Below, one piece after another: positions 43,784 to 62,480 of a stretch of 64,000 nucleotides of DNA. The stretch lies in the UHGV virus genome UHGV-1550212. The stretch is one strand, 5' to 3'. Below the pieces are notes generated by a model. It saw only the letters and a list, made by a program, of their open reading frames with translations. It was not told where the DNA came from and searched no databases. Each line of letters starts with the position of its first letter. Positions within the stretch are counted from its first letter, which is position 1. The position numbers were made by a program, and so were the translations under genes. The stretch comes from a virus.

Positions 43784-44842
43784 TTACTGCTTCAAGCCTG
43801 TGAACAGTTCATACTTGAATGCAGGCCCTGCTGTGTAAGCCTCAAAGTAGAAGTCACCAATATTGATGCTTGCAATAGCGTCATCGACAGCTTTCTTGTA
43901 GCCTACACGTTCAATTGTCTGCTTATCGCATTTACGCCAATATGTGCTGTGCATCATAAGCGTGGGTGATGCAGCATAGTCTACTGCAAGCTGTTGTTTT
44001 GCAGTGTCAATGTGATGTTCATAGATGTGCACATCATTGCCAGTCCAAATGAACTCTCTTGCCACACAGTTAGTCAATGTTGCAACAATATGTGTAAGCA
44101 ATGCATATGATGCGATATTGATGGGCACACCAAGACACATGTCACAGCTACGCTGAGTAAGCGCACAGTCAAGCCACATGCTTGGTACTTGAGCAGAATC
44201 AAGGCATTCTGCAGAACCATCATGCACAAGCATGCTATCATTAGCAATCTGAATTCGTTCTTCAAGAGTCATTGGCTGACAATTGAACTGAAACAGCATA
44301 TGACATGGCGGCAATGCCATCTGAGACATTTGCGCAGGATTCCATGCAGACACGACTTTGTAGCGGCCAGTTGGATTGATGACAATGTCTTTAATGCAAG
44401 TTGCAAGTTGGTCAAATCCACTGTCATTGAAGTTGCGCCACTGATACCCATAGATAGGTCCGCAATCACCATACTCAGGTTTGCTGAATTTTGTGTTGTG
44501 CAGTTCTGTGCACCAAGTGTCAAAGTCGACATCTTCACCTGGATGCAGCTTTTGCCAATGACGATATGCATCCTGATGCCAGAACTTTGTAATGCCAAGC
44601 GTGTCAAGCGTTTTGACATTAGTGTCACCTGACATAAACCACAGAAGTTCTCCAATGACGCCTTTGACAAACATTCTCTTGGATGTCAACAGTGGAAAGC
44701 CTTTACGCAAATCAAATCGCATTGATTCTACAAACAATGACTTTGTGCGAGGCATGTTTTCACGAGCAGGTTCCTTAAATCTGCCATGCTCAATAACATT
44801 ATTAAGTACTCTCAAGTACTCAGTGTCGTGTTTGATATTCAT
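43784..44842 (-). CDS. thyA: Thymidylate synthase (ThyA family) with an internal insertion
   Basis: FPLLTSKRMFVKGVIGELLWFMSG, GPIYGYQWRNF, ALPPCHMLFQF, QRSCDMCLGVPINIASYALL; Asn at the pyrimidine-specificity position. Confidence 0.8.
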   Translation of the reverse strand: MNIKHDTEYLRVLNNVIEHGRFKEPARENMPRTKSLFVESMRFDLRKGFPLLTSKRMFVKGVIGELLWFMSGDTNVKTLDTLGITKFWHQDAYRHWQKLHPGEDVDFDTWCTELHNTKFSKPEYGDCGPIYGYQWRNFNDSGFDQLATCIKDIVINPTGRYKVVSAWNPAQMSQMALPPCHMLFQFNCQPMTLEERIQIANDSMLVHDGSAECLDSAQVPSMWLDCALTQRSCDMCLGVPINIASYALLTHIVATLTNCVAREFIWTGNDVHIYEHHIDTAKQQLAVDYAASPTLMMHSTYWRKCDKQTIERVGYKKAVDDAIASINIGDFYFEAYTAGPAFKYELFTGLKQ

Positions 44843-45464
44843 GAATGGGATGTTTATGAGTGTCTAATGATATGTCTGAGAATTCATATGCATACTTTGA
44901 TATTGCAACACCATTTGCGTCTTCAAATGCTTCTGTAAAGTTGCTGTCAATCCATCGTTTGACAGACTTAACTCCGCCTAAATGACATGCTGCAAGCAAT
45001 GATGCTTCGGTTATTATAAATGCGCTATCATTGTATGTCGCTTTACGCCCAATTGCGTCATAGCAATTGTAGTGCTGCAGCAATTCTTGTTGACGTTCAA
45101 GTAGCATATGCTGTGCCGCAATCTGCTTTGTAGAATCTTTGGCAATTTCTTGCAGTGACCAAGTCAATCCTTTGTATCGTACCAAGTCATCATGAGCAAT
45201 CTTTGTTAGCTGCCATCGCCCTGTTGCGCCAAATCGATTTGTGATATGCCAACGATTACGAGATTCAAGATAGCCCAGCTTGTCTAAGTATTCTGCAAAG
45301 CTGCAAGTTTCTGGTTCAGTGACGTCTAACAAGACGTGTACATTTGACAAATTTGCGACTGGCGCATATGTGACATGTTTTGTTGCAGTGCAATCACATA
45401 ATGTCGGCCATGCAATGATAAAAGCAACACCAATTTTGATGAGCGATTCACATAATCTTATCAT
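44820..45464 (-). CDS. SLT-domain lytic transglycosylase-like protein
   Basis: Trimmed to ATG 45464; ...YLESRNRWHITNRFGATGRWQL (E-S...GAxGxxQ pattern); hydrophobic N-terminus. Confidence 0.4.
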   Translation of the reverse strand: MIRLCESLIKIGVAFIIAWPTLCDCTATKHVTYAPVANLSNVHVLLDVTEPETCSFAEYLDKLGYLESRNRWHITNRFGATGRWQLTKIAHDDLVRYKGLTWSLQEIAKDSTKQIAAQHMLLERQQELLQHYNCYDAIGRKATYNDSAFIITEASLLAACHLGGVKSVKRWIDSNFTEAFEDANGVAISKYAYEFSDISLDTHKHPIHEYQTRH

Positions 45465-45529
45465 TTGTTTGAAATTAGTGAAGAGCACTTGCAGGCAGCT
45501 CAATCTCCTGACAGTACACTGTCATGCAA

Positions 45530-47407
45530 TCAAAAGCCTGCAAAGAAATCAGCATCAGCAGCATCTTGCTGAGGTGTCGACTCTTGTTCAATCACAAATC
45601 GACTGTGCAACTTTTGATTATGTTTTATGTATGGCATAATGCGCCGGATTGATTCGTCAATGACAAATGTTTCACACCAGTCATTTGCATGTCGAATGCC
45701 TCGACCAACTGACTGTACGAAGCTTTGATAGCACTTGTTGCGATACCAGCTTTCGTGATTTGCAGCCTTTGTTTTTACTACGATATCACCAAGTGACTGC
45801 CAAGGTAATTTTGCAACAATTTGACATCTACAACGATTGTCTGGTAAGTCAACGCCTTCAGTAATGCTAAAGCCTACAAGTACGTAGTTAGTGCCATCAG
45901 CAAGCATTGCAAGTTTATTTTGTTTGTCTTCAGCATTGACATATGTCAGCATTCTGCGTTTGTGCTTGCTGTTGTTGATGATATAGTTTGCAATGTCTCG
46001 TGTTGATGTGTGTATGATACAGTTGCAGTCATGTGTATCAAGAATGCTGTCAATCTTCTCAACAAGTCGAGGCATATTTGCTGCTTTATTCTTGTAGCTC
46101 AATGACAACGCAGGTTTGCACAGTACAATGGGCGATTTGCTAAAATCCCAATCAGGCTCCATGTAGAATGCTACATAGTTTTTGATGCCATTGAGCGTAG
46201 CAAATGTATCAATGTCACCAATTGTCGCTGACATCCACAATTGTGCATGCGTAGCATCACTATGATGCACCAGTGTATTTGCAAGAAGCTCATCATTGAC
46301 ACATTTGAATTGCAAGCTGTTTGTTGCAGCATCAAGTACTACAAGCATGTCACCAGGTGATTGTTCAGTTGCATCAAGCATTGTAATGATTGAATATGAC
46401 AACGTATCACAGCTGGCAACAAAGCGAATGAACGCTTTCTCAAATTGACCAAGCATTTTGCCTGAATCCTGAAGTTCACGTAGCTTTTCATATGCAGTAT
46501 GCAAAAAGTCTACAAGTTCTGACAACTGCTGTGCAAGCACTCTTGCTTCTGCTCGCATTGTTGCAATGTCATATTGTGTTGTTGCAAGCTTAATGACTGC
46601 TTTGACTTGTGCAAACACATTGTTGCGAAGTTCTACATATTTGTTCTGATTTTCAAGAGTCATGATACCTGCAATCAGTGACTCGGCCTTTGTGCAATTC
46701 TGAATGAATCGAGGACCAATTGACGTGTCAAGAAAGCCTGACAAAATGTCATCAATCTTATGGCACTCATCGAATATCGTCAATTCACGAGGCCCAAACA
46801 AGTTTTTGACGCAATTAACTTGTATCAACCAGTACGCATAGTTAAGCACTGTGCAATTTGCTGCGGCAGCCTTTTGACGAGTCTGCAAATATGCGCATTT
46901 AGGTCCACATGGCAATGCAAGAGCTTTCTTTGATGACAACCCGTCTTGTTGGCATTTGCCCATACTGAATGGCAGACCATTGACATGACAAATGTAATTG
47001 TCTCGACCTTTGAGCATTACACAACTTCTGAATGCTGAAGTAGTTGTGTCTGCTTTAGCATTGTTGTCGTACAAATATTGTTGAATGAACTTGTCATACT
47101 GGTCTTGCAGCAGTTTATCAGAAGTCAGCACATACGACTTGAAGAATGTTGCGCAAAACATCGCAACCACAGATTTTCCCGTTCCAGTCGCTCCCTGCAA
47201 TATGACATGTTGCCCATTTGCAATTGCTCGAATAATGTCGATGATTAGATGACGCTGAGTTGCATCAAAACGCGCTTGGTCCCACTTGCATGTCTTTGAT
47301 TGCGCAAGATATGCTGAGAATTTATCAATATGTGCTACAATAAGCTCATCAAGTTCTTGCTGAGATTGCTCTTCTGTCTTATGTTCTGCTGGTGTTAGTC
47401 TACCCAT
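45530..47407 (-). CDS. Superfamily-2 DEAH helicase with Fe-S cluster cysteines (DinG/XPD-like)
   Basis: ILQGATGTGKS (Walker A), IFDECHKIDD (DExH), Cys cluster ...SCVMLK..YICHV..KCQ...PCGPKC. Confidence 0.7.
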   Translation of the reverse strand: MGRLTPAEHKTEEQSQQELDELIVAHIDKFSAYLAQSKTCKWDQARFDATQRHLIIDIIRAIANGQHVILQGATGTGKSVVAMFCATFFKSYVLTSDKLLQDQYDKFIQQYLYDNNAKADTTTSAFRSCVMLKGRDNYICHVNGLPFSMGKCQQDGLSSKKALALPCGPKCAYLQTRQKAAAANCTVLNYAYWLIQVNCVKNLFGPRELTIFDECHKIDDILSGFLDTSIGPRFIQNCTKAESLIAGIMTLENQNKYVELRNNVFAQVKAVIKLATTQYDIATMRAEARVLAQQLSELVDFLHTAYEKLRELQDSGKMLGQFEKAFIRFVASCDTLSYSIITMLDATEQSPGDMLVVLDAATNSLQFKCVNDELLANTLVHHSDATHAQLWMSATIGDIDTFATLNGIKNYVAFYMEPDWDFSKSPIVLCKPALSLSYKNKAANMPRLVEKIDSILDTHDCNCIIHTSTRDIANYIINNSKHKRRMLTYVNAEDKQNKLAMLADGTNYVLVGFSITEGVDLPDNRCRCQIVAKLPWQSLGDIVVKTKAANHESWYRNKCYQSFVQSVGRGIRHANDWCETFVIDESIRRIMPYIKHNQKLHSRFVIEQESTPQQDAADADFFAGF

Positions 47408-47448
47408 TCTAAATGAGATTTAGATTATGTTCGAATATATGAGAACAT
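47408..47448 (-). promoter_or_regulatory. Leader element: inverted repeat TCTAAAT-GAG-ATTTAGA plus palindrome ATGTTCGAATATATGAGAACAT (copy 2)
   Basis: Immediately upstream of helicase ATG; near-identical to 54361..54402. Confidence 0.5.
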
Positions 47449-47465
47449 ATATTATTTGTAAAAAT

Positions 47466-47494
47466 ATAATACTACAATCAGCATACATTTGCAC
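47466..47494 (-). promoter_or_regulatory. Sigma70-like promoter (GTGCAA-N17-TATTAT)
   Basis: Direct reading. Confidence 0.4.
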
Positions 47495-47499
47495 TTTGA

Positions 47500-47529
47500 C
47501 ATAACTGATTGATACTCAATCAGTTATGA
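47500..47529. promoter_or_regulatory. 13-bp perfect inverted repeat CATAACTGATTGA-TACT-TCAATCAGTTATG upstream of helicase promoter
   Basis: Direct reading; two CTGTCAGCTGTC direct repeats follow at 47586 and 47625. Confidence 0.4.
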
Positions 47530-47649
47530 GTTTATAAAAGTTTTCAAAAGTAGGGTGTTGTTGTTTGAGTAGAGTGTTGCTGATTCTGTCAGCTGTCTTG
47601 TTTGCGTTATCGATTGCTTGCAAACTGTCAGCTGTCATAGAACATCACA

Positions 47650-47685
47650 AAAGCAAGCAGACTACAATTGCAGTCTGCTTGCTTT
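47650..47685 (-). terminator. Intrinsic terminator after 47706..48062
   Basis: AGCAAGCAGACT-loop-AGTCTGCTTGCT, 14-bp stem. Confidence 0.55.
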
Positions 47686-47705
47686 GACATAGTTGTAATG
47701 TGAGT

Positions 47706-48062
47706 CTACTTGCGCATAAACAATGCAGCAAGCCAATTCACTGGCTTGTCAATAAGCTGCTTCCACATAGTCCAATTGTACATGCCATGCGCAAACATTG
47801 TAAGAGCAAACAACAGCATGCACATTGATACAAGCCAATCAGCAAATGGCATATTGCCCCATCGAATGTACTCGAAAATGCCAACTTTAACAAGCTGAGC
47901 AAACAAAATGAGCATTACAGCCATTGCAAGTCGCATCCAGACTACATATTGCTGAGTCTTATCTACAAACTTTGCAATCAATGCTGGCACAAAGTACATA
48001 ATGTACGCAAACAGCAACAAGCAAAAGCCTGCATACAGCAGATTAGAAATAAAAGCTCCCAT
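47706..48062 (-). CDS. Multi-pass membrane protein (118 aa)
   Basis: ATG start; hydrophobic throughout. Confidence 0.55.
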   Translation of the reverse strand: MGAFISNLLYAGFCLLLFAYIMYFVPALIAKFVDKTQQYVVWMRLAMAVMLILFAQLVKVGIFEYIRWGNMPFADWLVSMCMLLFALTMFAHGMYNWTMWKQLIDKPVNWLAALFMRK

Positions 48063-48065
48063 ATT

Positions 48066-48947
48066 TTATCGTTTGAATTTGATGAAGTGTTCAGCATCAA
48101 GGCCCTCAAATATGTACGGGTCAAGAGTTTCCCAGAAGTTTGAGTATGTCGTTGTCTTTGCAATACTTGTCTGCTTTGACAAGTTCATGTTTGGATAGCC
48201 AAGCATTGCATAGTGTCGCTCATATATGTGCATTGACGTTGCATTATGCATATAAGCGCCAAGCTTAAGACCAAGTTCATTTGCGACAAGTTCTTGCAAC
48301 AAAGTGAATGCAAACTGGTCGTTACAGAAGCCCCAAATGACATCATTGCTTCGCATATATGTTGTCAAGTACAGCTTATCACCACGAACATTGAAAACAA
48401 GATTCAATGTGCACGGCATATCTTTGCCAGTGTAGTTTGCATATTGCGGCTCATAAATGCTAATAACTGCTCGTCTTGTGCATTCATGATTTCGCAAACG
48501 TTCAATGACATCTGCAATCTGCTTGTGCCAAATTGCGCCATACTGTGAATTGACATTGACGCCATCATCACTGAACTGCTTCCAACGAGGCAAATAACGT
48601 TCAATGCATTCAACTGCAGGATTGGCTGTCATATACCATGCAAATTCTGCAGCAGCATTGAGCTTTTTCCATGGTCGTACATCAATCTTGATTTGTCGCT
48701 GTGAAGGGTCCTGAATAACTACAGACACATTCAGCAATTCTTTTGTTCGAGTCACTGTTTGTGCATTGTTGCCCTTTGATTCTACAAACTCACCTCTACA
48801 ATGAAGTTCATACAAAATTGAGCGAAATGCTTCTGTTGCAGTGTTTTCAACGATTGTCGTCTGTTGATAGCATAAATTTGACGACAATGCTTCAGCATCA
48901 TTGTACTTTATGCTGTCATTGTCATAAGGTGAATTTTTTGTGTGCAT
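48066..48947 (-). CDS. dCMP hydroxymethylase-like ThyA-fold enzyme (T4 gp42-like)
   Basis: ...DMPCTLNLVF, YMRSNDVIWGFCNDQFAF, SMHIYERHY; Asp at the position where thymidylate synthases have Asn. Start at 48947 chosen; ATG at 49088 also possible (would overlap HAD gene). Confidence 0.65.
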   Translation of the reverse strand: MHTKNSPYDNDSIKYNDAEALSSNLCYQQTTIVENTATEAFRSILYELHCRGEFVESKGNNAQTVTRTKELLNVSVVIQDPSQRQIKIDVRPWKKLNAAAEFAWYMTANPAVECIERYLPRWKQFSDDGVNVNSQYGAIWHKQIADVIERLRNHECTRRAVISIYEPQYANYTGKDMPCTLNLVFNVRGDKLYLTTYMRSNDVIWGFCNDQFAFTLLQELVANELGLKLGAYMHNATSMHIYERHYAMLGYPNMNLSKQTSIAKTTTYSNFWETLDPYIFEGLDAEHFIKFKR

Positions 48948-48972
48948 ATTTTGGGATGTTTGTTTTTTATTA

Positions 48973-50067
48973 TCATACAACGATAGTATCTCGTTTGCAA
49001 TCTGTTTTGTCAAATATTGAACAACAATACGATGCAGATTGTTCTTTGATTTCAAGAGCTTCATCATTATCAAGTGATGAAATGCCATCTATGTATGCTT
49101 TTGCATTGCCAGCAATGTCATCATTTGTTAACAACGCTGCACGACGTTCAGTGCCAAAGAAGCCAAAGCACAATTGATGTTGCAGTGCTTCACGAGAAGT
49201 CTTGTCATCAAACTCTGATTTCATGTGTTGCATAAATTCGACAATATCATCAATGTCGCATTGAGTAAAGTCAATGCACAATTTATGCATGTACTTGAAT
49301 CGTTTGTAGTCTGTTGCAAGAATTTCTGGGTGCACAATGAACAACGTCTTTTTGCTGTCTATTGGATTTGCAATGACTGATGCTTGAACATAATCGACAA
49401 GCATACCAGATTCACGAAGTTGCTCAATTGTTTTGCCAAACACATGCCCAAGCGTGTCATCAAACCACTTCAAGTATGCTTCACTGTCTTCATCTTTTGA
49501 CGCGCCAACAATGTAAATCTCATTGACTCCAAGTGCTTTGAGACGAGTATCAGACAACATAGTATTCAATTGATGCTGCACGTACAGCATTGGGCTGCTA
49601 TGCAAAACCGTTTTAACAATCTCACAAGCAATGTCCATATATGCATAGTCAAGCTTTGCAGATTTTGACACATACACTGCACGTTGCTGCAATGGCTCAA
49701 TTGCCGAGCATGTAGTTACAAAGTTGCCAACACATTCTGCTACTGCAATGTCATGCAAGTCATCTGCAATGTACACAATACTTGACAAGTCATCAAATGT
49801 TTGAACAAGTTGCTGAAGCTTTGTTTTGTAATTGCAGAGCATCAATGACTTGATGTTGCAATTACTTAGCATTGTCTTGATGAGTCGTTGACCTGCTTCA
49901 GTGCTGTCACCAGAAATGACATGCACATCGCAGTCAAACCAGTTCAGCATGTCAATTGCATGCCGAACACCATATTGCATTTGTTTTGCAAACTTACCAG
50001 ATTCATTGAACAGCATTTCACCTGACATAATGCCGTCAAAGTCACATACGATTTGAAGTCTGTCCAT
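48973..50067 (-). CDS. HAD-superfamily phosphatase domain protein with C-terminal domain
   Basis: VCDFDGIM (motif I DxDG), VHVISGDS, IADDLHD. Confidence 0.55.
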   Translation of the reverse strand: MDRLQIVCDFDGIMSGEMLFNESGKFAKQMQYGVRHAIDMLNWFDCDVHVISGDSTEAGQRLIKTMLSNCNIKSLMLCNYKTKLQQLVQTFDDLSSIVYIADDLHDIAVAECVGNFVTTCSAIEPLQQRAVYVSKSAKLDYAYMDIACEIVKTVLHSSPMLYVQHQLNTMLSDTRLKALGVNEIYIVGASKDEDSEAYLKWFDDTLGHVFGKTIEQLRESGMLVDYVQASVIANPIDSKKTLFIVHPEILATDYKRFKYMHKLCIDFTQCDIDDIVEFMQHMKSEFDDKTSREALQHQLCFGFFGTERRAALLTNDDIAGNAKAYIDGISSLDNDEALEIKEQSASYCCSIFDKTDCKRDTIVV

Positions 50068-50431: not shown

Positions 50432-53400
50432 TTAACAAATTGATGATGTGCCATCAGTGTTTGCTACAACTGTCAATGCGCTATCAAACTCATCTTGCTG
50501 TAACACATGGTCAACTATGAGTGTTTTGCGAATTGCAGAAAGCTTAGTAAGCAACTGCATCAACACTTGCTGATAATTGATGGTGTTGACGTCATGCTCA
50601 GCGCCAACAATCTGCCCGTTGCTAAGCTTGCCGCTAATTTCATCAATGAGCAAGATGTTGCCAACTTTGTTTAAGCGTTGAGTCAAAATGAGATGCACGA
50701 TTGCAAGACCTGCGAAAGTCCCTTCCATACCAGACATTTGACTTACACTTCGAATTGACTTCGAGCCCATCAAGTCAATCATCTTTAGCACATTGTTGTC
50801 ATTGATGTCAAAGAACACTCGGTAGTTCAATGAATCAAGCAAATCATTGAGCTGTGCATTCAGTGATGTTGCAATTGCTGCAAAGACATATGAAACTAAG
50901 CCTCGTTTGCTTGTGCACTGCTTATATGCATTGTACACCAAGTTTGCAATGTTCCACTTTTTCGAAGCTTGCAAATCTTTCTTGAGAGCTTCAATTCGCA
51001 CATTGTTTGCTGACAAGTCTGCTTGCATTGTTGCAATTTCTGCATTGATGCTTAGCAGTTTTGAGTTTGCTTCAGTTTCATGCTGCTTAGCATCATCAAT
51101 GTCGACTTGCAATGCAGCGTTTGCCACAATATGCTGCTGAGTTTGCTGTGCATGTTCAAGTGCAAATGCTGCAGCAGTCTTGTCAATCTCAAGTTGTTTA
51201 AGAGTAGACTCATATGATGCTTTCTTATCATATTCTGCTTGAGCAATTTCAAGTTCAGCATTTATTGCAGCCAGTTCTGATTCTACTGCAGATTTTGATT
51301 GCAATACATCTTGCTTTGCTTGTTCAGCTTTACGTTTGATGTCTGCAAGTTGATTTGTGATATCTGCAATTTGCGTTTTGACTGCTTCAACTTCAAGCAA
51401 TGTTGCTGCAGTAGCCATTGGCTGTGCAATGAATGCATCCAAGTCTCTTTGCGCATTGACTACAGTTCTTTGCAAGTCATTAAGCTTTTCTGCATGCATA
51501 TCATATGCAGCTTTATGTGCTGTATTCAGTGCAGCAATTATTGCATTTGAATCTGTGACATCAATGATTGCTGCTTGCAATTGCTCAATCTCATACTTCA
51601 AATTGCCAATTTTGACAACATTCTCATTGAATTGCTCTGTCTTTTGCGCGTATTCTTGACGCAACTTAGCAAGCTCAGTTGACAACCACAGCTTGTATGC
51701 TTGCCCTGTGCCAGATGTCAAATCATTTGTGCACACAGGACATTTATCATTTTCAAGTTGCTTTTGCTTGTCTATAACATTGTCGATGTTTGTTTTTGCA
51801 GCAGATACTTCTGTTCTAAGTGCATTTTGAACAGTGTTGATGTCTTCAATTTGCTTTTGCAAAGCATCTATTTTTGCCCGAGTGTCTGCATTATATGACT
51901 TGCCAAGATTTACCAGCACAGAATCAATGCGCTGCTTTGCTGCATCATATGCAAGCTTTGATTCATCAAGCTTTGTTCTGTACAATGATTCTGCATGCGC
52001 AACTTCTTTCTGCACTTTTGCAGATAGCTCATTCTGTTTTGTAAGCAGCTCAGCATATGTATTGTGCAGCTGTGAGCCAGATGCTATGACATTTGTGTAT
52101 GCTGCATTAGCTTCATTGTCAATATTAGTGAGTTGTTGCTCAATCTGCGCTTTTACTGTTTGCAATTTAGACATGTCTTGCAATGCAAGTGCAGCAATGT
52201 CAAGCTCAACTTTGCGAATCTTTGCAACGATGCTATCGACATTTGCTGTTGCATCTTCTACAGTTAAAATATCTGCAGGAATTTGATGCAGTCTTTTTGA
52301 GAGCTCTTCTACTTTTGCACGTGCTTTTGTAAGTTTTGCAGACCATTCCCTTTGATTATCTTGTCGTAACTGCAAAGAGTCATTGAGTTCATTGCAAGTT
52401 GTATTGAGAGACTCAAGTTCTGCTTTTATTGCGACATCAGTCAATGCGGGCTTACTAAGGCCATCAAACAATGCGGCCTTTGCAGCATCATTAGAATTGC
52501 CCAGTTGCACGAATGTGTTGATGCCAAGAGTATCAAGCAACCAGTCATTCAATGAATTTGAATCCATTGCAATGATTTGGTCAAGTAATGTCTGATTGAT
52601 GCAGACATATCGCGACAATTCCCAGATAGAACCAAAGATTGCGTATAGCGTGTCTTTGATTTCATGCTGTGGCACTACGTAGTCATCTGACAATCTTACA
52701 AGCTGCACAGTCTCATTGACTGCTGACACGTTATCTCGCCATGAGCCATCTGCATTTATTCGAGAGCCCCGTTTGAATCTACGTTCAAGTGTTCGAGTTA
52801 ATTTGTAGTGAACATTTTGACCAGCTACTACATGTACAAATACACAAGATGCTTCAAGCTTATCATATGACTCATTGTCAATCAATTTGTCATTGAAGTA
52901 TGTCAAAGCGTTCTGCTTTGTTGCTGCAGAAGACTGTCCAGCGTCAATAAAGCCAGTCAGCAGCCATTTAATGAGTCTGAAGATTGTTGTTTTGCCATTG
53001 CCGTTGTTGCCTCTAACTTGTGTAAGCTGTGCAAGATTGTCAAAGCTGACATCGACATCTTTCAATGCCATGAACTGATTTGCTTTGACATTTTGAATGA
53101 CGTATTTTGCAACTTCAGTGTCAAAAGACAATTTATCAATTTGCTCATCAATCAATGACTTGAACATGTCAACAAACTGCTGAGCGTCTTCAGTAGCAAC
53201 TATAGCATTGCGTTCAATGTACGCATTGACCCAGTCAAGTGCAGCATCTTTAAGCCATTCAGCAGTTTGAACTTTTTGCAGCAAATTGTCGCCATTTGCA
53301 TCTACAGCATTGATTGAATCAATGACAGCAGAATCATACAGAATGTCAATTGCGGCAACAACGTATGAACTTACAAGATTCTGTGCAATGCGCTCAACAA

Positions 53401-54358
53401 TGCCAGACAGTTCGGGCTTTGTGACCTTTGACTTGATTTTGATTTTGTTGATGCGACCAGGATTGATGAGTGCAATCTTATCTGTTTTGATGTCATTGTC
53501 AATTGTGATTGTATGATAATGCACAAGCTGCTCAAGCGAATGCCACTCTACTACAATTCGCTTGTTGTCAATATCGATGTCAAGCAAGTTGTAGCCATGT
53601 TCTGCAGTGCCCTGTTGCGTTGCAGTGTCATTCAACAAATAGTCGCCTTCACCAAAATCTCTGACAATTGGCGAGCCGCAGTATGTCAATGTCTTGGTGC
53701 CAGAAGTCCATATTGCATGTTTGTGAATATCACCCATTGCAACAAAGTTGCTGTGAAACTGTGTTGCATCTATACGACTGTCATTGTCACCACGAACAAT
53801 GCAGTCATCAAAGTTGACGCAATTCTTTACAGGGTCATGGAACAGCTCAATAACACACATTGATGACAATGCAGCAATCTGCGATTCGTCAAGTGATGCC
53901 CAAGGCGAATATGTGCCACCAGACCACTTCTCATTTTGAGCCCATACTGCAGCAGCAAAACCAGGTGCAAGCAGTTCAACTCTTGAACTGTTGATATACT
54001 TGATTCGCTTGTCATCAATTGCAGTTACAAGCTTGTCAATGCTATCTGTCCACTGCATTTGTGAACCATCACCAGCATCAAATGTGTTATCACGTTGCTT
54101 CAAATCATGATTGCCAGCAGTAATGACAATTTGAAGCTTGTCATTGACTTCAAGCATGCCTTTGAGCAGCTTAACAAACAGCGACTCTTCAAGTGAATTG
54201 CTGTTCCACTGCTCAAACACATCGCCAACAATAAACACAAACTCAACCGACTTTGCTTTGTCAATTAGTTGTTTGTTGATGTGCTCATATTCTACGAAAC
54301 GTCGTAAATGCCCTTGTCGAACATTATATTGAATGTCTGCTATGTGAAGTGCTTTCAT
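50432..54358 (-). CDS. Mre11/SbcD nuclease fused to Rad50/SbcC ATPase in one 1308-aa polypeptide
   Basis: N-terminus HIADIQYN, FIVGDVFE, ITAGNHD, GDIHKH (calcineurin-like phosphoesterase); then VRGNNGNGKTTIF (Walker A), long coiled coil with CPVC hook, ILLIDEISG (Walker B), TLIVDHV. Confidence 0.8.
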   Translation of the reverse strand: MKALHIADIQYNVRQGHLRRFVEYEHINKQLIDKAKSVEFVFIVGDVFEQWNSNSLEESLFVKLLKGMLEVNDKLQIVITAGNHDLKQRDNTFDAGDGSQMQWTDSIDKLVTAIDDKRIKYINSSRVELLAPGFAAAVWAQNEKWSGGTYSPWASLDESQIAALSSMCVIELFHDPVKNCVNFDDCIVRGDNDSRIDATQFHSNFVAMGDIHKHAIWTSGTKTLTYCGSPIVRDFGEGDYLLNDTATQQGTAEHGYNLLDIDIDNKRIVVEWHSLEQLVHYHTITIDNDIKTDKIALINPGRINKIKIKSKVTKPELSGIVERIAQNLVSSYVVAAIDILYDSAVIDSINAVDANGDNLLQKVQTAEWLKDAALDWVNAYIERNAIVATEDAQQFVDMFKSLIDEQIDKLSFDTEVAKYVIQNVKANQFMALKDVDVSFDNLAQLTQVRGNNGNGKTTIFRLIKWLLTGFIDAGQSSAATKQNALTYFNDKLIDNESYDKLEASCVFVHVVAGQNVHYKLTRTLERRFKRGSRINADGSWRDNVSAVNETVQLVRLSDDYVVPQHEIKDTLYAIFGSIWELSRYVCINQTLLDQIIAMDSNSLNDWLLDTLGINTFVQLGNSNDAAKAALFDGLSKPALTDVAIKAELESLNTTCNELNDSLQLRQDNQREWSAKLTKARAKVEELSKRLHQIPADILTVEDATANVDSIVAKIRKVELDIAALALQDMSKLQTVKAQIEQQLTNIDNEANAAYTNVIASGSQLHNTYAELLTKQNELSAKVQKEVAHAESLYRTKLDESKLAYDAAKQRIDSVLVNLGKSYNADTRAKIDALQKQIEDINTVQNALRTEVSAAKTNIDNVIDKQKQLENDKCPVCTNDLTSGTGQAYKLWLSTELAKLRQEYAQKTEQFNENVVKIGNLKYEIEQLQAAIIDVTDSNAIIAALNTAHKAAYDMHAEKLNDLQRTVVNAQRDLDAFIAQPMATAATLLEVEAVKTQIADITNQLADIKRKAEQAKQDVLQSKSAVESELAAINAELEIAQAEYDKKASYESTLKQLEIDKTAAAFALEHAQQTQQHIVANAALQVDIDDAKQHETEANSKLLSINAEIATMQADLSANNVRIEALKKDLQASKKWNIANLVYNAYKQCTSKRGLVSYVFAAIATSLNAQLNDLLDSLNYRVFFDINDNNVLKMIDLMGSKSIRSVSQMSGMEGTFAGLAIVHLILTQRLNKVGNILLIDEISGKLSNGQIVGAEHDVNTINYQQVLMQLLTKLSAIRKTLIVDHVLQQDEFDSALTVVANTDGTSSIC

Positions 54359-54446: not shown

Positions 54447-54783
54447 GCATTTTGATGATTGCATCTATCACAGTTTCACTGAGCAAGTAGTAGACAACGC
54501 TTATCAGCAATGATATCAGTACTGCAGCTGTGATAAATTGCAACGCATTCACAATTGCACGCACAAATGTTATCTGCGTGTTGTATGCAAGCACTATGCA
54601 GCATAGCACAATAATGACACACCAGACTACAATTGCATATGCAGGCATCAATGAATTTGTCCATATGCAGTACAATACAGTAATTAGCATCAAAAATGCT
54701 ATTGCTCTGATAACTGACACAATGATGTCTATGTAAGGCTTCATTGCACGCAAATGAACTCTTGGTTTATGTTGCTTCATCAT
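54436..54783 (-). CDS. Multi-pass membrane protein (115 aa)
   Basis: ATG start; hydrophobic. Confidence 0.55.
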   Translation of the reverse strand: MMKQHKPRVHLRAMKPYIDIIVSVIRAIAFLMLITVLYCIWTNSLMPAYAIVVWCVIIVLCCIVLAYNTQITFVRAIVNALQFITAAVLISLLISVVYYLLSETVIDAIIKMLAK

Positions 54784-56012
54784 GACTTTATGTACAATTC
54801 TGCAAGTTGTCTGGTGTACAGTCGTGGATTATGATATGCTTTCCAATACGCAGTAGACTTTATTGCAGCAAGAATTTCATCATAATGTTTGACTGCTTCT
54901 GCTACAACTTCATCAAGCACGCTCAAATCTTCTACACTGACAAGCAACCATTTTTCTACAATATCAATGAACTCCTGATTGCAATTGAAGCCATACTTGT
55001 AGTTGCAAGTATCAAGTACAAGTGGAATGCAATCATTTGTCAATGCTTCAAAAAATCTACGAAGACTGAAACAATTCTCATCATATGATGGAATGCTCAA
55101 TGTAAACTTGGCAGTCTTGATGAGTTGCAAATACTCTTCGTATGGAATCAGAGGACCATTGTGCTTCCATTGATTATTGTGTCGTCTTGTCGTGTACTTG
55201 AACAAAAACTTTGAATTGTCAAGTTCACAAAGATGGTCCATGCGTAAAATGTAGTTATAGCGGTCTCTTCTGTCAGGCCAACTGTCAGTCATCGCAAACA
55301 CAAAGTCTCTTTGCTTGTCACATTTTGCTGACATACCTCTATGCTGACACATGCAATACCAATATTGCTGCGATGGGCTGAACTCAAACTTTGAATGATG
55401 CTCACTTCCATCTTTGCATTGCTGAACATAAATGTTGTCAGGCACAAAGTGAAAATAAAAGTGTCGAATTTGCAAGTCATTGATGTAGTCAAGCTTATGC
55501 TGCAATGGGTCTTCACAGAAATTGTAACACTGAATATGCTTTGCTGCTGCGTACTCAGCAACTATGAACGTGCACATCCATTGCAATGCAATATCTTCAC
55601 TCTTCAAAAAGTTTACAAGCGGCTCATTTGGATGCGCTTTGCATTCATTGAACATTTTGTACCACTTGCATTGCTCCATATCGTACTTTGATACTGTATT
55701 GCCATTAAAGAACGACACAGTGTCAATTTTGAATGCATCAAGTTGTTTATGCACAATGTCAAGTGCTTGTGCGTATGTGATTGTCTCATCAGACATTATC
55801 TGCGCAAACTTGATTGGATGCGCATGCAAATTTGCGATAGTGTCTGCCGACATTTTACGCTGTGTGTGATAATCGACATACAAAAACTGACACTTGTCTG
55901 TAAGCAATTCAAGCATTGCTACAGATTTCCATCGAATTGCTTGAAAGAAATTGAAGTGTGCAGTTTGAAAGATGAGATGCGTAGGTTTATCAGAATGAGT
56001 CAAAGTTTGCAT
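54780..56012 (-). CDS. Glycosyltransferase-like protein (GT-B type), cassette 1
   Basis: C-terminal ...IPSYDENCFSLRRFFEALTNDCIPLV (E...EA..x.P motif); paralog of 59060..60616. Confidence 0.45.
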   Translation of the reverse strand: MQTLTHSDKPTHLIFQTAHFNFFQAIRWKSVAMLELLTDKCQFLYVDYHTQRKMSADTIANLHAHPIKFAQIMSDETITYAQALDIVHKQLDAFKIDTVSFFNGNTVSKYDMEQCKWYKMFNECKAHPNEPLVNFLKSEDIALQWMCTFIVAEYAAAKHIQCYNFCEDPLQHKLDYINDLQIRHFYFHFVPDNIYVQQCKDGSEHHSKFEFSPSQQYWYCMCQHRGMSAKCDKQRDFVFAMTDSWPDRRDRYNYILRMDHLCELDNSKFLFKYTTRRHNNQWKHNGPLIPYEEYLQLIKTAKFTLSIPSYDENCFSLRRFFEALTNDCIPLVLDTCNYKYGFNCNQEFIDIVEKWLLVSVEDLSVLDEVVAEAVKHYDEILAAIKSTAYWKAYHNPRLYTRQLAELYIKS

Positions 56013-57175
56013 GGACAAATGTCGCAGTTATGTTGATGTTTGTGTTTATTTATGAAGTCATATGTCACTGCAAAAAAGTGCTTTGCAATGTCATATCGAG
56101 TTTTCAAATATGCTGCTTGGCGTTCACAAAACGCTGCATAAATGTCTGGGTGTCGTTTGAATGCAGCAATGCGTTGCTGTACTTGTTCTGCAGAATGTAC
56201 ATATGACACTTTGCTCAAATATGCATCATCTGCAAATAATCGTCTGTCTTTGTCAACTGCGCAATCAACAAAAGTTGCAATTCGTGCAACAATGGCTTCA
56301 CCAACACGATTTGGCATCAACCCATATTGCTCATATTGTTGGTCACCGATAGCAATGTGCGCTGCTGCATATGACATTGCATATGGCACACTATAAAATG
56401 GCACACTAAAATCAAATGAGCAATTTGACTGTAGTAGTTGCGTTTGTGCATCAGACAATCTACTTGTCAAGTTGCCTGTATGTTTGTGCTCACCAAGAAA
56501 ACTTGAGCGACAACCTGAATCTACATAGTATCGAATGACTTTGTTTATGCGACTGTCAGATAGCATATGCCAATCTCTTGTAGCATATATCAAGTCTACT
56601 GTTTTTGCACCAATATGACGAGGCTCTATCGCAACATTGCTGTATGTTGGCAGCATGAACAATGGCAGCCATTTGACATTGTTGAACACTGAATGTTCAT
56701 TTGACAAATTCATGCACTGGCTAAGTTCAAGTACTGGCTCATCATACACGCCATGCAGTTCAACTCTGCCTGCATGCACAAAGTTGACACGCTTAAATGG
56801 AAATCGCATATCAGTGCAAACCGTCATTCTTGCTGCAGTAGACATTCGCCACATAGCATGCAGCTTAACAACTGCTTCGGCTTGAGGTCGAGGCAGCATA
56901 TTTAGCAAATCAATCCAGCCACCCCACAAAATCCAAACATCATTTGAACAGATGTTGAATTGCAAACTCAATATGTCTTCTACTGTTGCAGCAATGATGT
57001 CATGCCCATTGATGCTTGCAAGGTGCTTTCGTTGATTTGCAATAAGAATGACTTGACTGAACGGAGACTCTGGAAATGACACAAGCGCCTTTGCAAACAA
57101 CACGGGTTCTTGTGATACCAAGTTGTTTGAGTATGGGTCGATTATGCAATCAAGCTTGTGTATGAAAAGTCTCAT
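56000..57175 (-). CDS. Possible DNA glycosyltransferase, cassette 1 partner
   Basis: ...ILWGGWID...TVCTDMRFPF; paralog of 60613..61779; resemblance to T4 beta-glucosyltransferase is from memory and weak. Confidence 0.4.
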   Translation of the reverse strand: MRLFIHKLDCIIDPYSNNLVSQEPVLFAKALVSFPESPFSQVILIANQRKHLASINGHDIIAATVEDILSLQFNICSNDVWILWGGWIDLLNMLPRPQAEAVVKLHAMWRMSTAARMTVCTDMRFPFKRVNFVHAGRVELHGVYDEPVLELSQCMNLSNEHSVFNNVKWLPLFMLPTYSNVAIEPRHIGAKTVDLIYATRDWHMLSDSRINKVIRYYVDSGCRSSFLGEHKHTGNLTSRLSDAQTQLLQSNCSFDFSVPFYSVPYAMSYAAAHIAIGDQQYEQYGLMPNRVGEAIVARIATFVDCAVDKDRRLFADDAYLSKVSYVHSAEQVQQRIAAFKRHPDIYAAFCERQAAYLKTRYDIAKHFFAVTYDFINKHKHQHNCDICPCKL

Positions 57176-58240: not shown

Positions 58241-58445
58241 AGTCTGAGGCAATCAAATCTTTGTCAAAGCATTCATCTATAATGTCTTCAATAAGATACG
58301 CTTCGACATTGTTAAGCTTCAAGATATCTACGAGTTTTGCTTTGATATCGCAAGCTAATGCAGATTCAACTGTATGCAATATGACTGATGATGCGACATG
58401 CTTGTCTGTCATCATTTGTAATTGCTGTGGTGTTACTCTACTCAT
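58230..58445 (-). CDS. Hypothetical protein (71 aa)
   Basis: ATG start, ATGA overlap with kinase gene. Confidence 0.45.
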   Translation of the reverse strand: MSRVTPQQLQMMTDKHVASSVILHTVESALACDIKAKLVDILKLNNVEAYLIEDIIDECFDKDLIASDCAK

Positions 58446-59014
58446 GCGCCAAGTTCAGCTAAGCATTTTAGCACATTGTCTTGCAGACTTACATTGTTGT
58501 CGATTTCGACAATATGCAATGGTGAGTTCTTTCGCCACTCATCATATGCAGCAATCATTTTATTGCGTTTGTTGACATCAATGTTGACATCGCCACAAAA
58601 GTTATCAACAAAATCTGGTGCAACATCACGCTTGCATAAGAACACTATATGCGGCAATGTTGCAAGCTTCTTTTCATATGCTTCAAAGAATGCTTGATGC
58701 TTATCAGTGTGCAACTCTTTGTAAAGCGTTGTGTTAAAGATTTGATGTGTGATGAACGAACGGTCACACAAAAATGTTGCTTTGCCAAAGCCTTTAGAGT
58801 CATTTCCAATGAACTCTAAGAAGAAGCGCCAATCATAAAAGAACGCTTCATTGAGGTCCCAAGGTTCGGGCATTGGGTCATCACCTGACTCATGCTGTTG
58901 CCACCAAGAACGAGATGTTCGTTTGCAATTGATAAACCATGGGCGCCACTTCATCAATTCATTGATGAGTGTTGTTTTGCCTGAAGCTTCTACACCTTCA
59001 AATATCGCTATCAT
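58442..59014 (-). CDS. P-loop nucleotide kinase (thymidylate kinase-like)
   Basis: IAIFEGVEASGKTTLI (Walker A). Confidence 0.65.
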   Translation of the reverse strand: MIAIFEGVEASGKTTLINELMKWRPWFINCKRTSRSWWQQHESGDDPMPEPWDLNEAFFYDWRFFLEFIGNDSKGFGKATFLCDRSFITHQIFNTTLYKELHTDKHQAFFEAYEKKLATLPHIVFLCKRDVAPDFVDNFCGDVNIDVNKRNKMIAAYDEWRKNSPLHIVEIDNNVSLQDNVLKCLAELGA

Positions 59015-59039: not shown

Positions 59040-59068
59040 ACAGTACAACGTAGTTATGCTCATTGCAC
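59040..59068 (-). promoter_or_regulatory. Weak sigma70-like promoter (GTGCAA-N17-TACTGT)
   Basis: Direct reading. Confidence 0.3.
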
Positions 59069-60616
59069 TTCTACGAATGGCTCTTTCAACACAAAGCTGT
59101 CACCATTGCAACATGCGGCTGAGCCATCGTCTGCATCAAGTGCACATGACATATCAGACTTGCAGAACTTGCAATATAAACATGACCATGCATGACTCAT
59201 GAAGTTGTTTGCTTCACAAATTGCGCAACGCTCATGCATAAGTGCATTGTCGCAATTATCACAAGACTTCTTGATTGGCACAGTTTTGTTGATGTATGCA
59301 AGATGCAATGCAATATCATACACAAAGTCACCCGTATATTGCTGAATGAAATCAGTATGCCACAACTCTTTTAACAATTGTGCATGTCTATATGGCTGAA
59401 CAATGTCTTCAAGATGCTGCAAGTCATCATCGCTAACCATGAGCTTCTTAATGACAAATTGTTTGAACTGTGGCCATCTGTCAAACATATAGAGTTTGCA
59501 TGAGTTGTGCACAAGTGGAACACAGCCAAGCACAATGCTTTCACAGAATCTACGCAAACTAAAACAGTTTGCATCATATGACGGCACAATCAATGTGAAT
59601 CTGCTATGCTTGATGAGTTCAAGGTATGTGTCATATGGCAGTAGCTTATCTGACAATTGCTGTTGTTGTTTGTCTCTGCTGAAAAATCTGAACACAATAC
59701 CCTTGTCAATTGCATCTTGATTGTGCAGATGCATGAGTTTGTTGATGAGTTCTGTGCGTTCAGTTTTGTCTCGCCAAGTATTCGTCAATGCAAATGCAAA
59801 ATTCAGTCGCTTGTCATCAAACGTCGCTTCAATATCATTCCAAGTTTTGTCATGCAAATACCAGTATTGCTGTGATGGGCACCATCCATAATATGCAATA
59901 GCATCTTGTTCTGCTGTAACGTCATACACATATGCAGAATTGTATTCAAGGCCAAGCCTTTTGACGTTGTTGCAGTCATGAAAGTACCAATGCTGCACTT
60001 TGAATATCTTTGATGCACTGAATGCGCTTTCATATGGCCCTGAATAGCGATAGTCAATGTAATTGAGCTTGTGCTGCAATGGGTCTTCGACAAAGTTGTT
60101 TATGACTGTGCCTTGTTGTTTGCCCTTAGTCTTGCGAGCATTCAATGCAACATTGTATTGCATGATGACTGACAGCATCTCATACACTACATACATGAGT
60201 GCTTTGTAGACTGAGCCTGCTGCGTCAATTAGTGGCAAATCACGTTTGACTGATGTAGCGCCAAATGTCTTGCAATATGCAGAAAATGTGTCAAGTTCTG
60301 CTTGCTGAAATGAATTGCATGCACCATTGAATATGTTGAATGTTGCAATGTAGCTCATATTGCAAGATGTCATTGACATATCAAGACGCTTCATAATGTC
60401 GACAATGCGACATTGAGCAAAATCTGACACATCAACATATTTGACATGATGGCCTGATGTAGTCAAGCCATCTGCGACATCTTTCATCTGTGGCACAAAG
60501 CCTACAACAATGAATAAGTCATCTTTGTTTGCTCGTTCAAACATTGCTGCACTTTTCCAAGTCAATGAATTGAAAAAGTCTATGTAGCCAGTTTGAGTGA
60601 TTATATGCGTTCTCAT
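59060..60616 (-). CDS. Glycosyltransferase-like protein (GT-B type), cassette 2
   Basis: ...VPSYDANCFSLRRFCESIVLGCVPLV; N-terminus also parallels 54780..56012. Confidence 0.45.
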   Translation of the reverse strand: MRTHIITQTGYIDFFNSLTWKSAAMFERANKDDLFIVVGFVPQMKDVADGLTTSGHHVKYVDVSDFAQCRIVDIMKRLDMSMTSCNMSYIATFNIFNGACNSFQQAELDTFSAYCKTFGATSVKRDLPLIDAAGSVYKALMYVVYEMLSVIMQYNVALNARKTKGKQQGTVINNFVEDPLQHKLNYIDYRYSGPYESAFSASKIFKVQHWYFHDCNNVKRLGLEYNSAYVYDVTAEQDAIAYYGWCPSQQYWYLHDKTWNDIEATFDDKRLNFAFALTNTWRDKTERTELINKLMHLHNQDAIDKGIVFRFFSRDKQQQQLSDKLLPYDTYLELIKHSRFTLIVPSYDANCFSLRRFCESIVLGCVPLVHNSCKLYMFDRWPQFKQFVIKKLMVSDDDLQHLEDIVQPYRHAQLLKELWHTDFIQQYTGDFVYDIALHLAYINKTVPIKKSCDNCDNALMHERCAICEANNFMSHAWSCLYCKFCKSDMSCALDADDGSAACCNGDSFVLKEPFVEVQ

Positions 60617-61779
60617 GATTTGAATGTTTGTTCAAGAATTGTATAGCACTGTGCAATCATTGTTGCAAGAGCTTTTTGCTGAAGCTGTTTGCAATTTGAA
60701 GATATTGTGTATTGCTGACGCTCAGTTGTAGTACTGCTTAATGTCGCAAATTGCAGGTACTCATCTTCTGACATGATATCAGCAAACAATGCAGACAATT
60801 CATAATCTACAATGACATTTGAGCAGTTTGCAAGTACGCCTTCAACCCATCGATTTGGCAACAAACATGCTTGCACATACAATGAATCGCCGACTACAAG
60901 ATTGCACATTGACTGCGACATTACATACGTCATCATGTCATATGGCACTTTGTACTTAAGTGTGAAGTTTTGTGCTGCTGACTTAATTGCTTGCAGAATT
61001 GTGTCATCAAGATATGATGTTATAAGGCAAGTATTGTATGCCTGCATAATGTAACGCTCAATCACGCTTCTACGATACTCGTCAAGATATGTGAAACCTG
61101 CACAACTTGCACAACATGCATATTGCTGCTTTATGTCAGCAAAGCTACACACATGCGCTTCAATTGCATTTTGCATTGTTGCTTGTCGTTTGAGCAATCT
61201 TGGCTCTTTAATGCATTGAAGCTTCAATGCATTGACTGCTGCAATGATTTGCAATGGCACAAACACGCATTGAGACTCATCAAGCCAAGCATACTTGAGA
61301 TTTTTATGTTGACACAGATGCGTAATGTTGTCTTTTTGTGATTCTAAGTACTCTTTGTAATTATGCAATCGCTTTGTCAATGTGCACTCTTTGTCAAAAT
61401 CAAATCGCAAATCAGTTGTTAGTGTAAATTTGCGAACATTTGACAAGCACCATGCTTTGAATGCATTCCACAGAACATCTTGCTGAAATTCTGAACAATG
61501 TTCAAGAGCAGCCTTTGAGCCCTGCCAGAATATTGCGCAATCATCTGATTTTGCACACTTCAGCATATCTTGCCATGCATGTATGCTATTGATGATATGC
61601 ACTTTATTATGCACAAGCTCATTAAGTGTTGCATGCTTGTTCTCAGGGTCGCCAAACACGTATACTGTATCAAACATTGTTTGAACAAACCCTGCAAATG
61701 CAATGGGTTCTGTATGTTTAAGATGCTGTATGTCTGAACGCACACATGTGTCAAATTTCAAAATGAAGAGTTTGCTCAT
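60613..61779 (-). CDS. Possible DNA glycosyltransferase, cassette 2 partner
   Basis: ...IFWQGSKAA...TLTTDLRFDF; paralog of 56000..57175. Confidence 0.4.
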   Translation of the reverse strand: MSKLFILKFDTCVRSDIQHLKHTEPIAFAGFVQTMFDTVYVFGDPENKHATLNELVHNKVHIINSIHAWQDMLKCAKSDDCAIFWQGSKAALEHCSEFQQDVLWNAFKAWCLSNVRKFTLTTDLRFDFDKECTLTKRLHNYKEYLESQKDNITHLCQHKNLKYAWLDESQCVFVPLQIIAAVNALKLQCIKEPRLLKRQATMQNAIEAHVCSFADIKQQYACCASCAGFTYLDEYRRSVIERYIMQAYNTCLITSYLDDTILQAIKSAAQNFTLKYKVPYDMMTYVMSQSMCNLVVGDSLYVQACLLPNRWVEGVLANCSNVIVDYELSALFADIMSEDEYLQFATLSSTTTERQQYTISSNCKQLQQKALATMIAQCYTILEQTFKS

Positions 61780-62416: not shown

Positions 62417-62480
62417 TTTAAGATATATGAGATTTCGTTGAAACCACTTTGTTTCAGACCAAGTTAGCCATTTCATATGC

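Follow-up and report, generated by a model that had tools for sequence, protein, structure and literature searches.

What two enzymes of the thymidylate synthase (ThyA) fold do in one phage genome is the question raised by a stretch of the viral genome UHGV-1550212, analyzed here as a window of 64,000 nucleotides. The two open reading frames (ORFs) are ORF1 (43784..44842; 352 residues) and ORF2 (48066..48947; 293 residues), and like all genes in this part of the window, they lie on the minus strand. An earlier note on this DNA had proposed, from an Asn/Asp difference at the pyrimidine-specificity residue, that the phage makes both dTMP and 5-hydroxymethyl-dCMP (5hmdCMP). As a sequence prediction, the proposal is sustained by further discriminating residues, but the Asn/Asp difference is insufficient by itself to define the product because the enzymes with Asp at this position include 5-hydroxy-dCMP synthases and MilA. 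The phage probably encodes a T-even-like pyrimidine pathway in which ORF1 would generate dTMP and ORF2 would generate 5hmdCMP, and it very probably replaces the cytosine of its DNA with sugar-decorated 5-hydroxymethylcytosine (5hmC).

Overall structure and homologues of ORF2

ORF2 is predicted to be a dCMP hydroxymethylase (5hmdCMP synthase), based on its PF00303 match (E=9e-24), its similarity to MilA and T4 dCMP hydroxymethylase (dCH), its structural model and its active-site residues. The longest reading frame at the locus (48066..49088) would encode a 340-residue protein and overlaps the upstream gene by 116 nucleotides. This longer version was rejected because of the overlap and because the homologues and the gene calls of public contigs begin at Met48 (position 48947).

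In a HMMER comparison of the ORF2 sequence with solved structures, MilA is matched at 1.4e-22 (83 bits) and T4 dCH at 2e-11 (47 bits). The score is 44 bits for AfhB and up to ∼54 bits for thymidylate synthases, of which the best match is the N229D mutant of the Lactobacillus casei enzyme (1njc). The AlphaFold (AF2) model of ORF2, built from a 43-sequence alignment, has a mean pLDDT of 90.8. A Foldseek search of the PDB with this model returns MilA at E=7e-20 (TM 0.70) and the HY126 dCMP hydroxylase AfhB (9iqc) at 4e-16, followed by thymidylate synthases at ∼1e-15 and T4 dCMP hydroxymethylase at 1.8e-14. As judged from the model, ORF2 is a ThyA-fold protein.

Enzymes of the ORF2-like clade with Asp at position 177 (E. 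coli ThyA numbering) are common among viral metagenomes; IMG/VR has at least 584 such loci. The phmmer "ThyA" matches in these loci were discarded as candidate canonical ThyA genes, being the hydroxymethylase homologues themselves. Bacteroides phage BF486P2 (contig L004) contains two Asp177 ThyA-fold paralogues (5165..5926 and 7998..8678) that flank a dUTPase. Both are annotated as dCMP hydroxymethylases, and one of them has Leu in place of Glu58 and lacks Gly173.

Active-site residues of ORF2

ORF2 was aligned with E. coli ThyA, a T4-like gp42 (Citrobacter phage CkP1), RB69 gp48, an SPO1-like gp29 and 120 database homologues. All residues named in PMC13326640 are reproduced by the numbering of the E. 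coli ThyA reference sequence. ORF2 contains the segment MRSNDVIWGFCNDQFAF, whose Asp210 (codon 48318..48320) aligns to E. coli Asn177 and L. casei Asn229. The earlier note had placed an Asp at this position, and the HMMER alignments to solved structures and two MAFFT alignments agree on it; none of them locates the Asp elsewhere, and the catalytic residue Cys179, equivalent to E. coli Cys146, is found in its proper context (GKDMPCT).

The remaining active-site positions can be assigned in the same alignments. ORF2 retains Glu58 (Glu101), Trp80 (Trp122), Gly173 (Gly206) and the His207-x-Tyr209 pair (His240-x-Tyr242), and the Arg126-Arg127 pair corresponds to Arg158-Arg159 in the sequence TRRAV. 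The E. coli Arg166-Ser167-x-Asp169 motif is represented by Arg199-Ser-Asn-Asp202 (RSND; MRSND in the clade). ORF2 has Ser134-Gln-Tyr136 at the position of Tyr94 (Ser-x-Tyr), Asp176 at the position of Leu143, three residues ahead of the catalytic Cys (Cys-3), and Thr180 at the position of His147. Asp177, the catalytic Cys, Thr147, RSND, the Asp residue at Cys-3 and the H-x-Y motif are invariant in all 120 homologues (120/120). Because Asp210 is invariant together with the Cys, Thr147, RSND and H-x-Y residues throughout this set, the alignment indicates that it is no chance substitution.

Published structures and assays provide a set of residues against which ORF2 can be read. The Asn177Asp replacement confers cytosine specificity (PMC5175136, PMC8670742), and Asp177 combined with a residue other than His at position 147 is associated with modified-cytosine contigs in metaviromes (PMC8670742). 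Hydroxymethylation is marked by Asp or Glu at Cys-3 together with a Ser/Thr-x-Tyr motif, as described with the ternary complex of T4 dCH, whose activity is lost in the D145N, Y96F and S94N mutants (PMC6400193). Both elements are present in ORF2 as Asp176 and Ser134-Gln-Tyr136. The ribonucleotide-specific MilA has Ala and Lys where deoxyribonucleotide-specific enzymes have Ser167 and Arg126 (PMC5175136). ORF2 displays the deoxyribose determinants, Ser200 and Arg158, and not the Ala167 and Lys126' marks of MilA and BcmA.

A further group of enzymes, including RB69 gp48 and DLP3 gp80, combines Asn177Asp with an acidic residue at position 143 and produces 5-hydroxy-dCMP using flavin and O2 (PMC13326640). 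Asn at position 169 is diagnostic of this group, as all tested 5-hydroxy-dCMP synthases carry it (PMC13326640, 2026). RB69 gp48, which shares 98% identity with the solved AfhB structure (9iqc), reads MRSQN, and RB69 gp48 and AfhB contain Asn, Val, Val and Phe at the positions of Asp169, Gly173, Trp80 and Tyr209, respectively. ORF2 has R-S-N-D202 instead of R-S-Q-N, and all four of these residues are kept in ORF2 and its 120 homologues. Since the Asp at Cys-3, the Ser-x-Tyr motif, Asp169, Ser167, Arg126 and Thr147 are all concordant, every published sequence discriminator predicts that ORF2 converts dCMP to 5hmdCMP.

ORF1 as a divergent thymidylate synthase

ORF1 matches PF00303 at E=3.6e-76 (256 bits; cut-off of 24.3) and scores 239 bits against the NCBIfam model TIGR03284, surpassing the curated cut-off of 108. 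Solved thymidylate synthases in the PDB are matched at 1e-55 to 1e-45. The canonical motifs that the earlier note had read in ORF1 are present, with Leu177 at Cys-3, Cys180, His181, R231-S-C-D234, Asn242 and H272-x-Y274. The Asn242 residue (codon 44117..44119) resides in the sequence GVPINIASY. In a MAFFT alignment with E. coli ThyA, ORF1 retains E58, Y94, R126, L143, C146, H147, Q165, R166, S167, D169, G173, N177, H207 and Y209.

ORF1 deviates from typical ThyA proteins outside these positions. The spacing between the PCH and QRSCD motifs is 48 residues in ORF1 and 17 in E. coli, which gives a lineage-specific β-hairpin insertion of 31 residues (44180..44281; boundaries approximate). The insertion is thus where the earlier note had put it but is shorter than the ∼35 residues given there. 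The span from GDTN to GPxYG, in the WDEW region, is about 30 residues longer than that of a typical ThyA, and additional residues are also found ahead of the C-terminus, bringing the lineage-specific insertions to three. The placement of Trp80 and Trp83 around an insertion of 20–30 residues differs between HMMER and MAFFT. In the phosphate clamp (Arg126'-Arg127'), Arg126 is retained, the Arg127 position is occupied by Tyr, and the C-terminus is extended by four residues (...ELFTGLKQ). L. casei Arg179, which corresponds to Arg127, is a non-essential phosphate ligand, and the C-terminus of thymidylate synthase matters for active-site closure.

The ThyA protein of a syntenic relative (contig L005) shares Arg127Tyr, the lengthened spacing in the WDEW region and the C-terminal extension with ORF1. 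It also has the hairpin insertion, which is longer (40 residues) and divergent in sequence. The best ThyA matches from cultured phages are 37% identical to ORF1 and ∼44 residues shorter across the aligned span. By its sequence, ORF1 is a divergent thymidylate synthase and a predicted dTMP producer; dTMP synthesis is retained as its function because there is no change near C5.

Glycosyltransferase candidates

Two of the window proteins, with 391 residues (56000..57175) and 388 residues (60613..61779), belong to one family. The 391-residue protein matches the β-glucosyltransferase family phrog_7922 at E=5e-8, and the 388-residue paralogue is related to it at E=2e-13 (phmmer) and contains the TDxRF and PNRxxE motifs. 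A single-sequence PDB search with the 391-residue protein gave no match. A six-sequence profile of the family (A4) matched T4 DNA β-glucosyltransferase (BGT) only in the whole PDB (1bgt, 2.8e-9; 1nzd, 5e-8), with ∼240 residues aligned to 1bgt and the N-terminal ∼120 residues unaligned. In this alignment, BGT Asp100 (TDIRLPF), which Lariviere et al. (2003) name in their title as the catalytic base, coincides with the invariant TDMRFPF sequence, and RVWE coincides with the invariant NRVGE sequence. The 391- and 388-residue proteins are remote homologues of T4 BGT and would glycosylate 5hmC.

Each BGT-like gene is followed by a gene for a GT47/exostosin-like candidate of the GT-B fold, so that the four genes form two duplicated pairs. 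The 412-residue protein (54780..56018; 410 residues in public gene calls) matches PF03016 at E=9e-5 and PF13524 at E=2e-4, both below the cut-off. Its 518-residue paralogue (59060..60616) is related to it at E=3e-44 (phmmer), matches PF03016 at E=5.6e-6 and ends in a Cys-rich tail. The GT47-like family has the conserved sequence FSLRRFFEA..GC.PL, and its profile found no match in the PDB.

Cys-rich tails occur in three proteins of the putative modification module, namely the 518-residue protein (CDNCD...CAIC...CLYCKFC, 59060..59250), the BGT-like family (HNCDxCP, 56000..56040) and the HAD protein described below (YCCS..DC, 48973..49040), and may bind zinc. BGT-like phage transferases can attach heptose, Kdo, uronic acids and oligosaccharides to 5hmC, sometimes with a requirement for a HAD-type enzyme (preprint 10.1101/2023.12.21.572611).

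KdsC-like HAD phosphatase beside ORF2

The gene directly upstream of ORF2 (48973..50067) encodes a KdsC-like capless HAD phosphatase (residues 1–155) with an α/β C-terminal domain. The capless HAD fold, of the C0 type found in KdsC and KDN-9-P phosphatases, contains intact DxD, Ser/Thr, Lys and DD motifs. The protein scores below the curated KdsC cut-offs (38.5 bits versus 107 for TIGR01670; 31 versus 208 for NF007019), which define Kdo-8-P phosphatase, and it is therefore a relative and not an orthologue of KdsC, to which the KdsC substrate cannot be transferred. Its C-terminal domain has no match in Pfam, PHROGs or NCBIfam.

The HAD subfamily is a rare one: a set of 1.84 billion representatives contains 38 relatives. 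In seven of the 38 relatives (P0126, P0131–P0133, P0139, P0144 and P0159), the C-terminal domain is replaced by a homologue of the RB69 gp47+gp46 DNA arabinosyltransferase. An hhalign comparison of the C-terminal domain from the window with the arabinosyltransferase (Aat)-like domain of these longer fusions was negative, with a probability of 0.2%. One fusion (contig L091, 9281..13905; Logan SRR21396292) lies inside an RB69-like 5-hydroxycytosine cluster that also contains an Asp169Asn ThyA homologue, a SIS isomerase, an AfhE-like protein and a dCMP deaminase. No separate AfhF phosphatase was found in this cluster, and for this reason the fused HAD domain probably replaces AfhF there. The arabinosyltransferase fusions and this gene context link the HAD subfamily to sugar supply for DNA glycosylation.

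Alternative products of ORF2 and ORF1

The assignment of ORF2 as a dCMP hydroxymethylase has to be weighed against other chemistries of the ThyA fold. ORF2 could be a flavin- and O2-dependent dCMP hydroxylase of the RB69 gp48/HY126 AfhB type, in which case the transferases would act on 5-hydroxycytosine. The combination of Asn177Asp and an acidic Cys-3 residue is common to that class (PMC13326640), AfhB ranks second among the groups of structural matches, the TMK-like kinase (see below), several glycosyltransferases and the HAD phosphatase beside a ThyA homologue resemble the DLP3 cluster, and the Asp169Asn cluster of L091 contains a fusion of this HAD subfamily with an RB69-type arabinosyltransferase. 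However, ORF2 and its homologues retain Asp169, Gly173, Trp80 and Tyr209, and the ORF2 score is almost twice as high for MilA as for AfhB. Moreover, the BGT homologues of the window point to hydroxymethylcytosine, the base on which T4 BGT acts, the Aat-like regions at the C-termini of the HAD fusions, which match RB69 gp46:47, have no match among the window ORFs, and no SIS isomerase or AfhE homologue was found in the window. A hydroxylase is consequently considered unlikely. A dCMP methyltransferase that generates 5-methyl-dCMP, as in phage XP12 and in Asn177Asp mutants of thymidylate synthase, with another target for the transferases, is more improbable still. Asn177Asp by itself does suffice to make a canonical thymidylate synthase methylate dCMP (PMC8670742), and the L. 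casei N229D mutant is among the better sequence matches of ORF2. The replacement of Leu143 by Asp and the Ser-x-Tyr motif are nevertheless the signature of hydroxymethylation (PMC6400193), and ORF2 lacks the C-terminal end with which thymidylate synthase seals its active site for hydride transfer. The closest characterized enzyme is a hydroxymethylase, and 5-methylcytosine would offer the BGT homologues no acceptor.

The least probable of the alternatives is the hydroxymethylation of another nucleotide by ORF2, either CMP, as by MilA, or dUMP, as by SPO1 gp29. MilA is the best solved match, and the SPO1-like and ViI-like dUMP hydroxymethylases are ∼30% identical to ORF2. Against this, the ribose determinants Ala176 and Lys133 of MilA are Ser and Arg in ORF2, position 177 is Asn in SPO1 gp29 but Asp in ORF2, and the phage has retained a canonical ThyA as well, from which it follows that thymine is not being replaced. 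For ORF1, the Arg127Tyr replacement, the C-terminal extension conserved in L005 and the three insertions would be compatible with an enzyme that is not a plain dTMP synthase, its C-terminus or insertions making it leaky or shifting its product, for example, to 5-hydroxymethyl-dUMP. This reading is given a small probability, between those of the hydroxylase and the methyltransferase, as all ORF1 residues that reach C5 are of the thymidylate synthase type, including Leu143 and a Pro-x-Tyr instead of a Ser-x-Tyr motif, and the TIGR03284 score is far above the curated cut-off.

Several observations weigh against the production of dTMP by ORF1 and of glycosylated 5hmC through ORF2. ORF2 is just 23–27% identical to any characterized enzyme. 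The Asp169 rule is one-sided in that nine Asp169Asn enzymes hydroxylate, whereas few Asp169 enzymes from outside the T-even group have been assayed. ORF1 is an atypical thymidylate synthase by virtue of Arg127Tyr, its three insertions and the four-residue C-terminal extension. The substrates of the MazG-like protein and the TMK-like kinase described in the next section are guesses, and the GT47-like proteins reach sub-threshold scores only. For the HAD phosphatase, the window yielded no isomerase or nucleotidyltransferase gene, and neither the window nor the 10 kb beyond its end yielded any genes of sugar-nucleotide synthesis that could explain its role.

Nucleotide-pool genes and proposed pathway

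Four further window genes would serve the nucleotide pools. A MazG-like nucleotide pyrophosphohydrolase (23468..23842; phrog_229, E=1e-35; PF03819, E=8e-9) is a candidate dCTPase and functional analogue of T4 gp56. The adjoining gene (23844..24335) encodes a protein of the dUTPase/dCTP deaminase fold (PF00692, E=7e-11; PF22769, E=3e-7; phrog_135). A predicted dCMP deaminase (61751..62476; PF00383, E=6e-21; phrog_174, E=1e-43) would supply ThyA with dUMP. A 190-residue P-loop nucleotide kinase (58442..59014), which is thymidylate kinase (TMK)-like and has weak TMK and AAA_28 matches, is a candidate 5hmdCMP kinase. It is homologous (E=1.9e-23) to a "thymidylate kinase" that adjoins an Asp177 ThyA homologue in Chryseobacterium phage MA9V-2, whose phage paper makes no mention of DNA modification. 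A single-sequence PDB search with the kinase found no match. TMK-like kinases occur in the cytosine-modification clusters of DLP3, RB69 and RL38J1 (PMC13326640).

The family-B DNA polymerase of the phage is split into an exonuclease half (24724..26229) and a polymerase half (21138..22430). The two halves are separated by four genes, among them those of the MazG-like pyrophosphatase and the dUTPase-like protein. A 136-residue DUF488-N3a protein (26245..26655; PF22751, E=3e-9) adjoins the exonuclease half.

In the proposed pathway, the MazG-like pyrophosphatase, probably with assistance from the dUTPase-fold protein, would lower dCTP and dUTP and feed the monophosphate pools. The dCMP deaminase would convert dCMP to dUMP, which ORF1 would methylate to dTMP in a folate-dependent reaction, as suggested by the complete conservation of its active site. 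In ORF2, whose signature residues are all present, Asp210 would bind dCMP, Cys179 would attack C6, and the methylene group of methylenetetrahydrofolate would be moved to C5. A water molecule activated by Asp176 would then add to the exocyclic methylene without hydride transfer, yielding 5hmdCMP. The TMK-like kinase and the host nucleoside diphosphate kinase would generate 5hmdCTP for incorporation by the phage polymerase. After replication, the two BGT homologues and probably the two GT47-like transferases would, by homology, glycosylate the hydroxymethyl group. The KdsC-like phosphatase would most likely dephosphorylate a sugar phosphate en route to the sugar donor, the weakest step of the scheme, suggested by association only.

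Replacement of cytosine by sugar-decorated 5hmC is a known anti-restriction strategy. The core of the finding is expected biology, as T-even phages classically obtain restriction-resistant DNA by pairing a thymidylate synthase with an Asp177 paralogue. The analysis places this T-even-type pathway in a new phage lineage without a cultured relative and provides a worked example of how 5hmC producers can be told by sequence from the recently discovered 5-hydroxycytosine producers. What may be new lies in the glycan and in the function that the KdsC-like phosphatase would have. The glycosylation module of two BGT homologues, two GT47-like proteins and the KdsC-like phosphatase could yield a new DNA hypermodification and is a possible source of new DNA-modifying enzymes. 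It is a tentative idea, with the odds against it, that 5hmC is built up into an undescribed glycan. The duplicated transferase pairs could assemble a disaccharide or oligosaccharide on the base, and the phosphatase could provide or trim a phosphorylated or acidic (Kdo- or heptose-like) sugar of an unusual kind, be it the donor or the product. If so, the phage would have a pre-replicative, ThyA-type route to the glycan diversity that has so far been shown only for TET-type phage clusters.

Gene order and lineage

The order GT-GT-...-SbcCD-x-HAD-hydroxymethylase-membrane protein-helicase-x-ThyA (GT, glycosyltransferase) is kept in L005, whose hydroxymethylase is 72% identical to ORF2. It is partly kept in a second contig (L006; hydroxymethylase 51% identical), which ends shortly past the helicase. 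A search of cultured phages for DNA nearly identical to the region gave no match; the phage has no close cultured relative and is unrelated to Straboviridae at the DNA level. None of 51 start codons of minus-strand genes is preceded by GGAG, GAGG or AGGA, and the leaders are A-rich, which suggests a host without Shine-Dalgarno sites. The host is possibly a member of the Bacteroidota, an assignment that fits the best cultured-phage matches, which are Chryseobacterium and Bacteroides phages.

The SbcCD gene of this order (50432..54358) encodes a 1308-residue protein with an N-terminal SbcD/Mre11-type metallophosphoesterase and an SbcC/Rad50-type ATPase, and the SbcD–SbcC fusion is conserved in L005 (1310 residues) and L006 (1401 residues). 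Elsewhere in the window, a 1399-residue ORF (3705..7904) has a prohead-protease domain confined to its first ∼350 residues.

Comparison with known systems

ORF2 resembles T4 gp42 (1b49, 6a9a) in its ThyA fold, the Cys nucleophile, the Asp179 equivalent, the Asp145 equivalent at Cys-3, the Ser94-x-Tyr96 and RSND motifs and the Arg-Arg pair from the partner subunit. It differs in sequence (∼23–30% identity) and in length (293 versus 246 residues), the additional segments at its N- and C-termini being conserved within its own clade. At the level of the pathway, the T-even system (gp56, cd, td, gp1 and the α- and β-glucosyltransferases) is paralleled by the hydroxymethylase beside a canonical thymidylate synthase and by the dCMP deaminase, MazG-type pyrophosphatase, nucleotide kinase and BGT homologues of the window. 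Unlike in T4, the kinase is TMK-like and not gp1-like, there are four transferase candidates in two paralogous pairs, and no α-glucosyltransferase homologue was detected in the window.

MilA (5jnh, 5b6d), the CMP 5-hydroxymethylase of mildiomycin biosynthesis, is the top match of ORF2, and both have Asp at positions 177 and 143. MilA prefers ribonucleotides through Ala176 and Lys133, which are Ser and Arg in ORF2, and it belongs to an antibiotic cluster of Streptomyces, where it acts together with an N-glycosidase, whereas ORF2 resides in a phage replication module. The 5-hydroxy-dCMP synthases (RB69 gp48, DLP3 gp80 and HY126 AfhB; 9iqc, 9iqu) share the ThyA fold, Asn177Asp and the acidic Cys-3 residue with ORF2, and their clusters likewise combine a ThyA homologue with a TMK-like kinase, several GT-B transferases and a HAD phosphatase. 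ORF2 lacks the Asp169Asn, Gly173Val, Trp80Val and Tyr209Phe replacements of these enzymes, and the window transferases are BGT-like and not Aat-like, with no arabinose-nucleotide genes found in the window. The similarity of the transferases to T4 BGT (1bgt) is remote, and this phage differs in having two paralogues, with a GT47-like gene behind each of them. The catalytic Asp100 of BGT and its Arg269/Glu272 nucleotide-binding motif nonetheless align to invariant residues of the 391/388-residue family.

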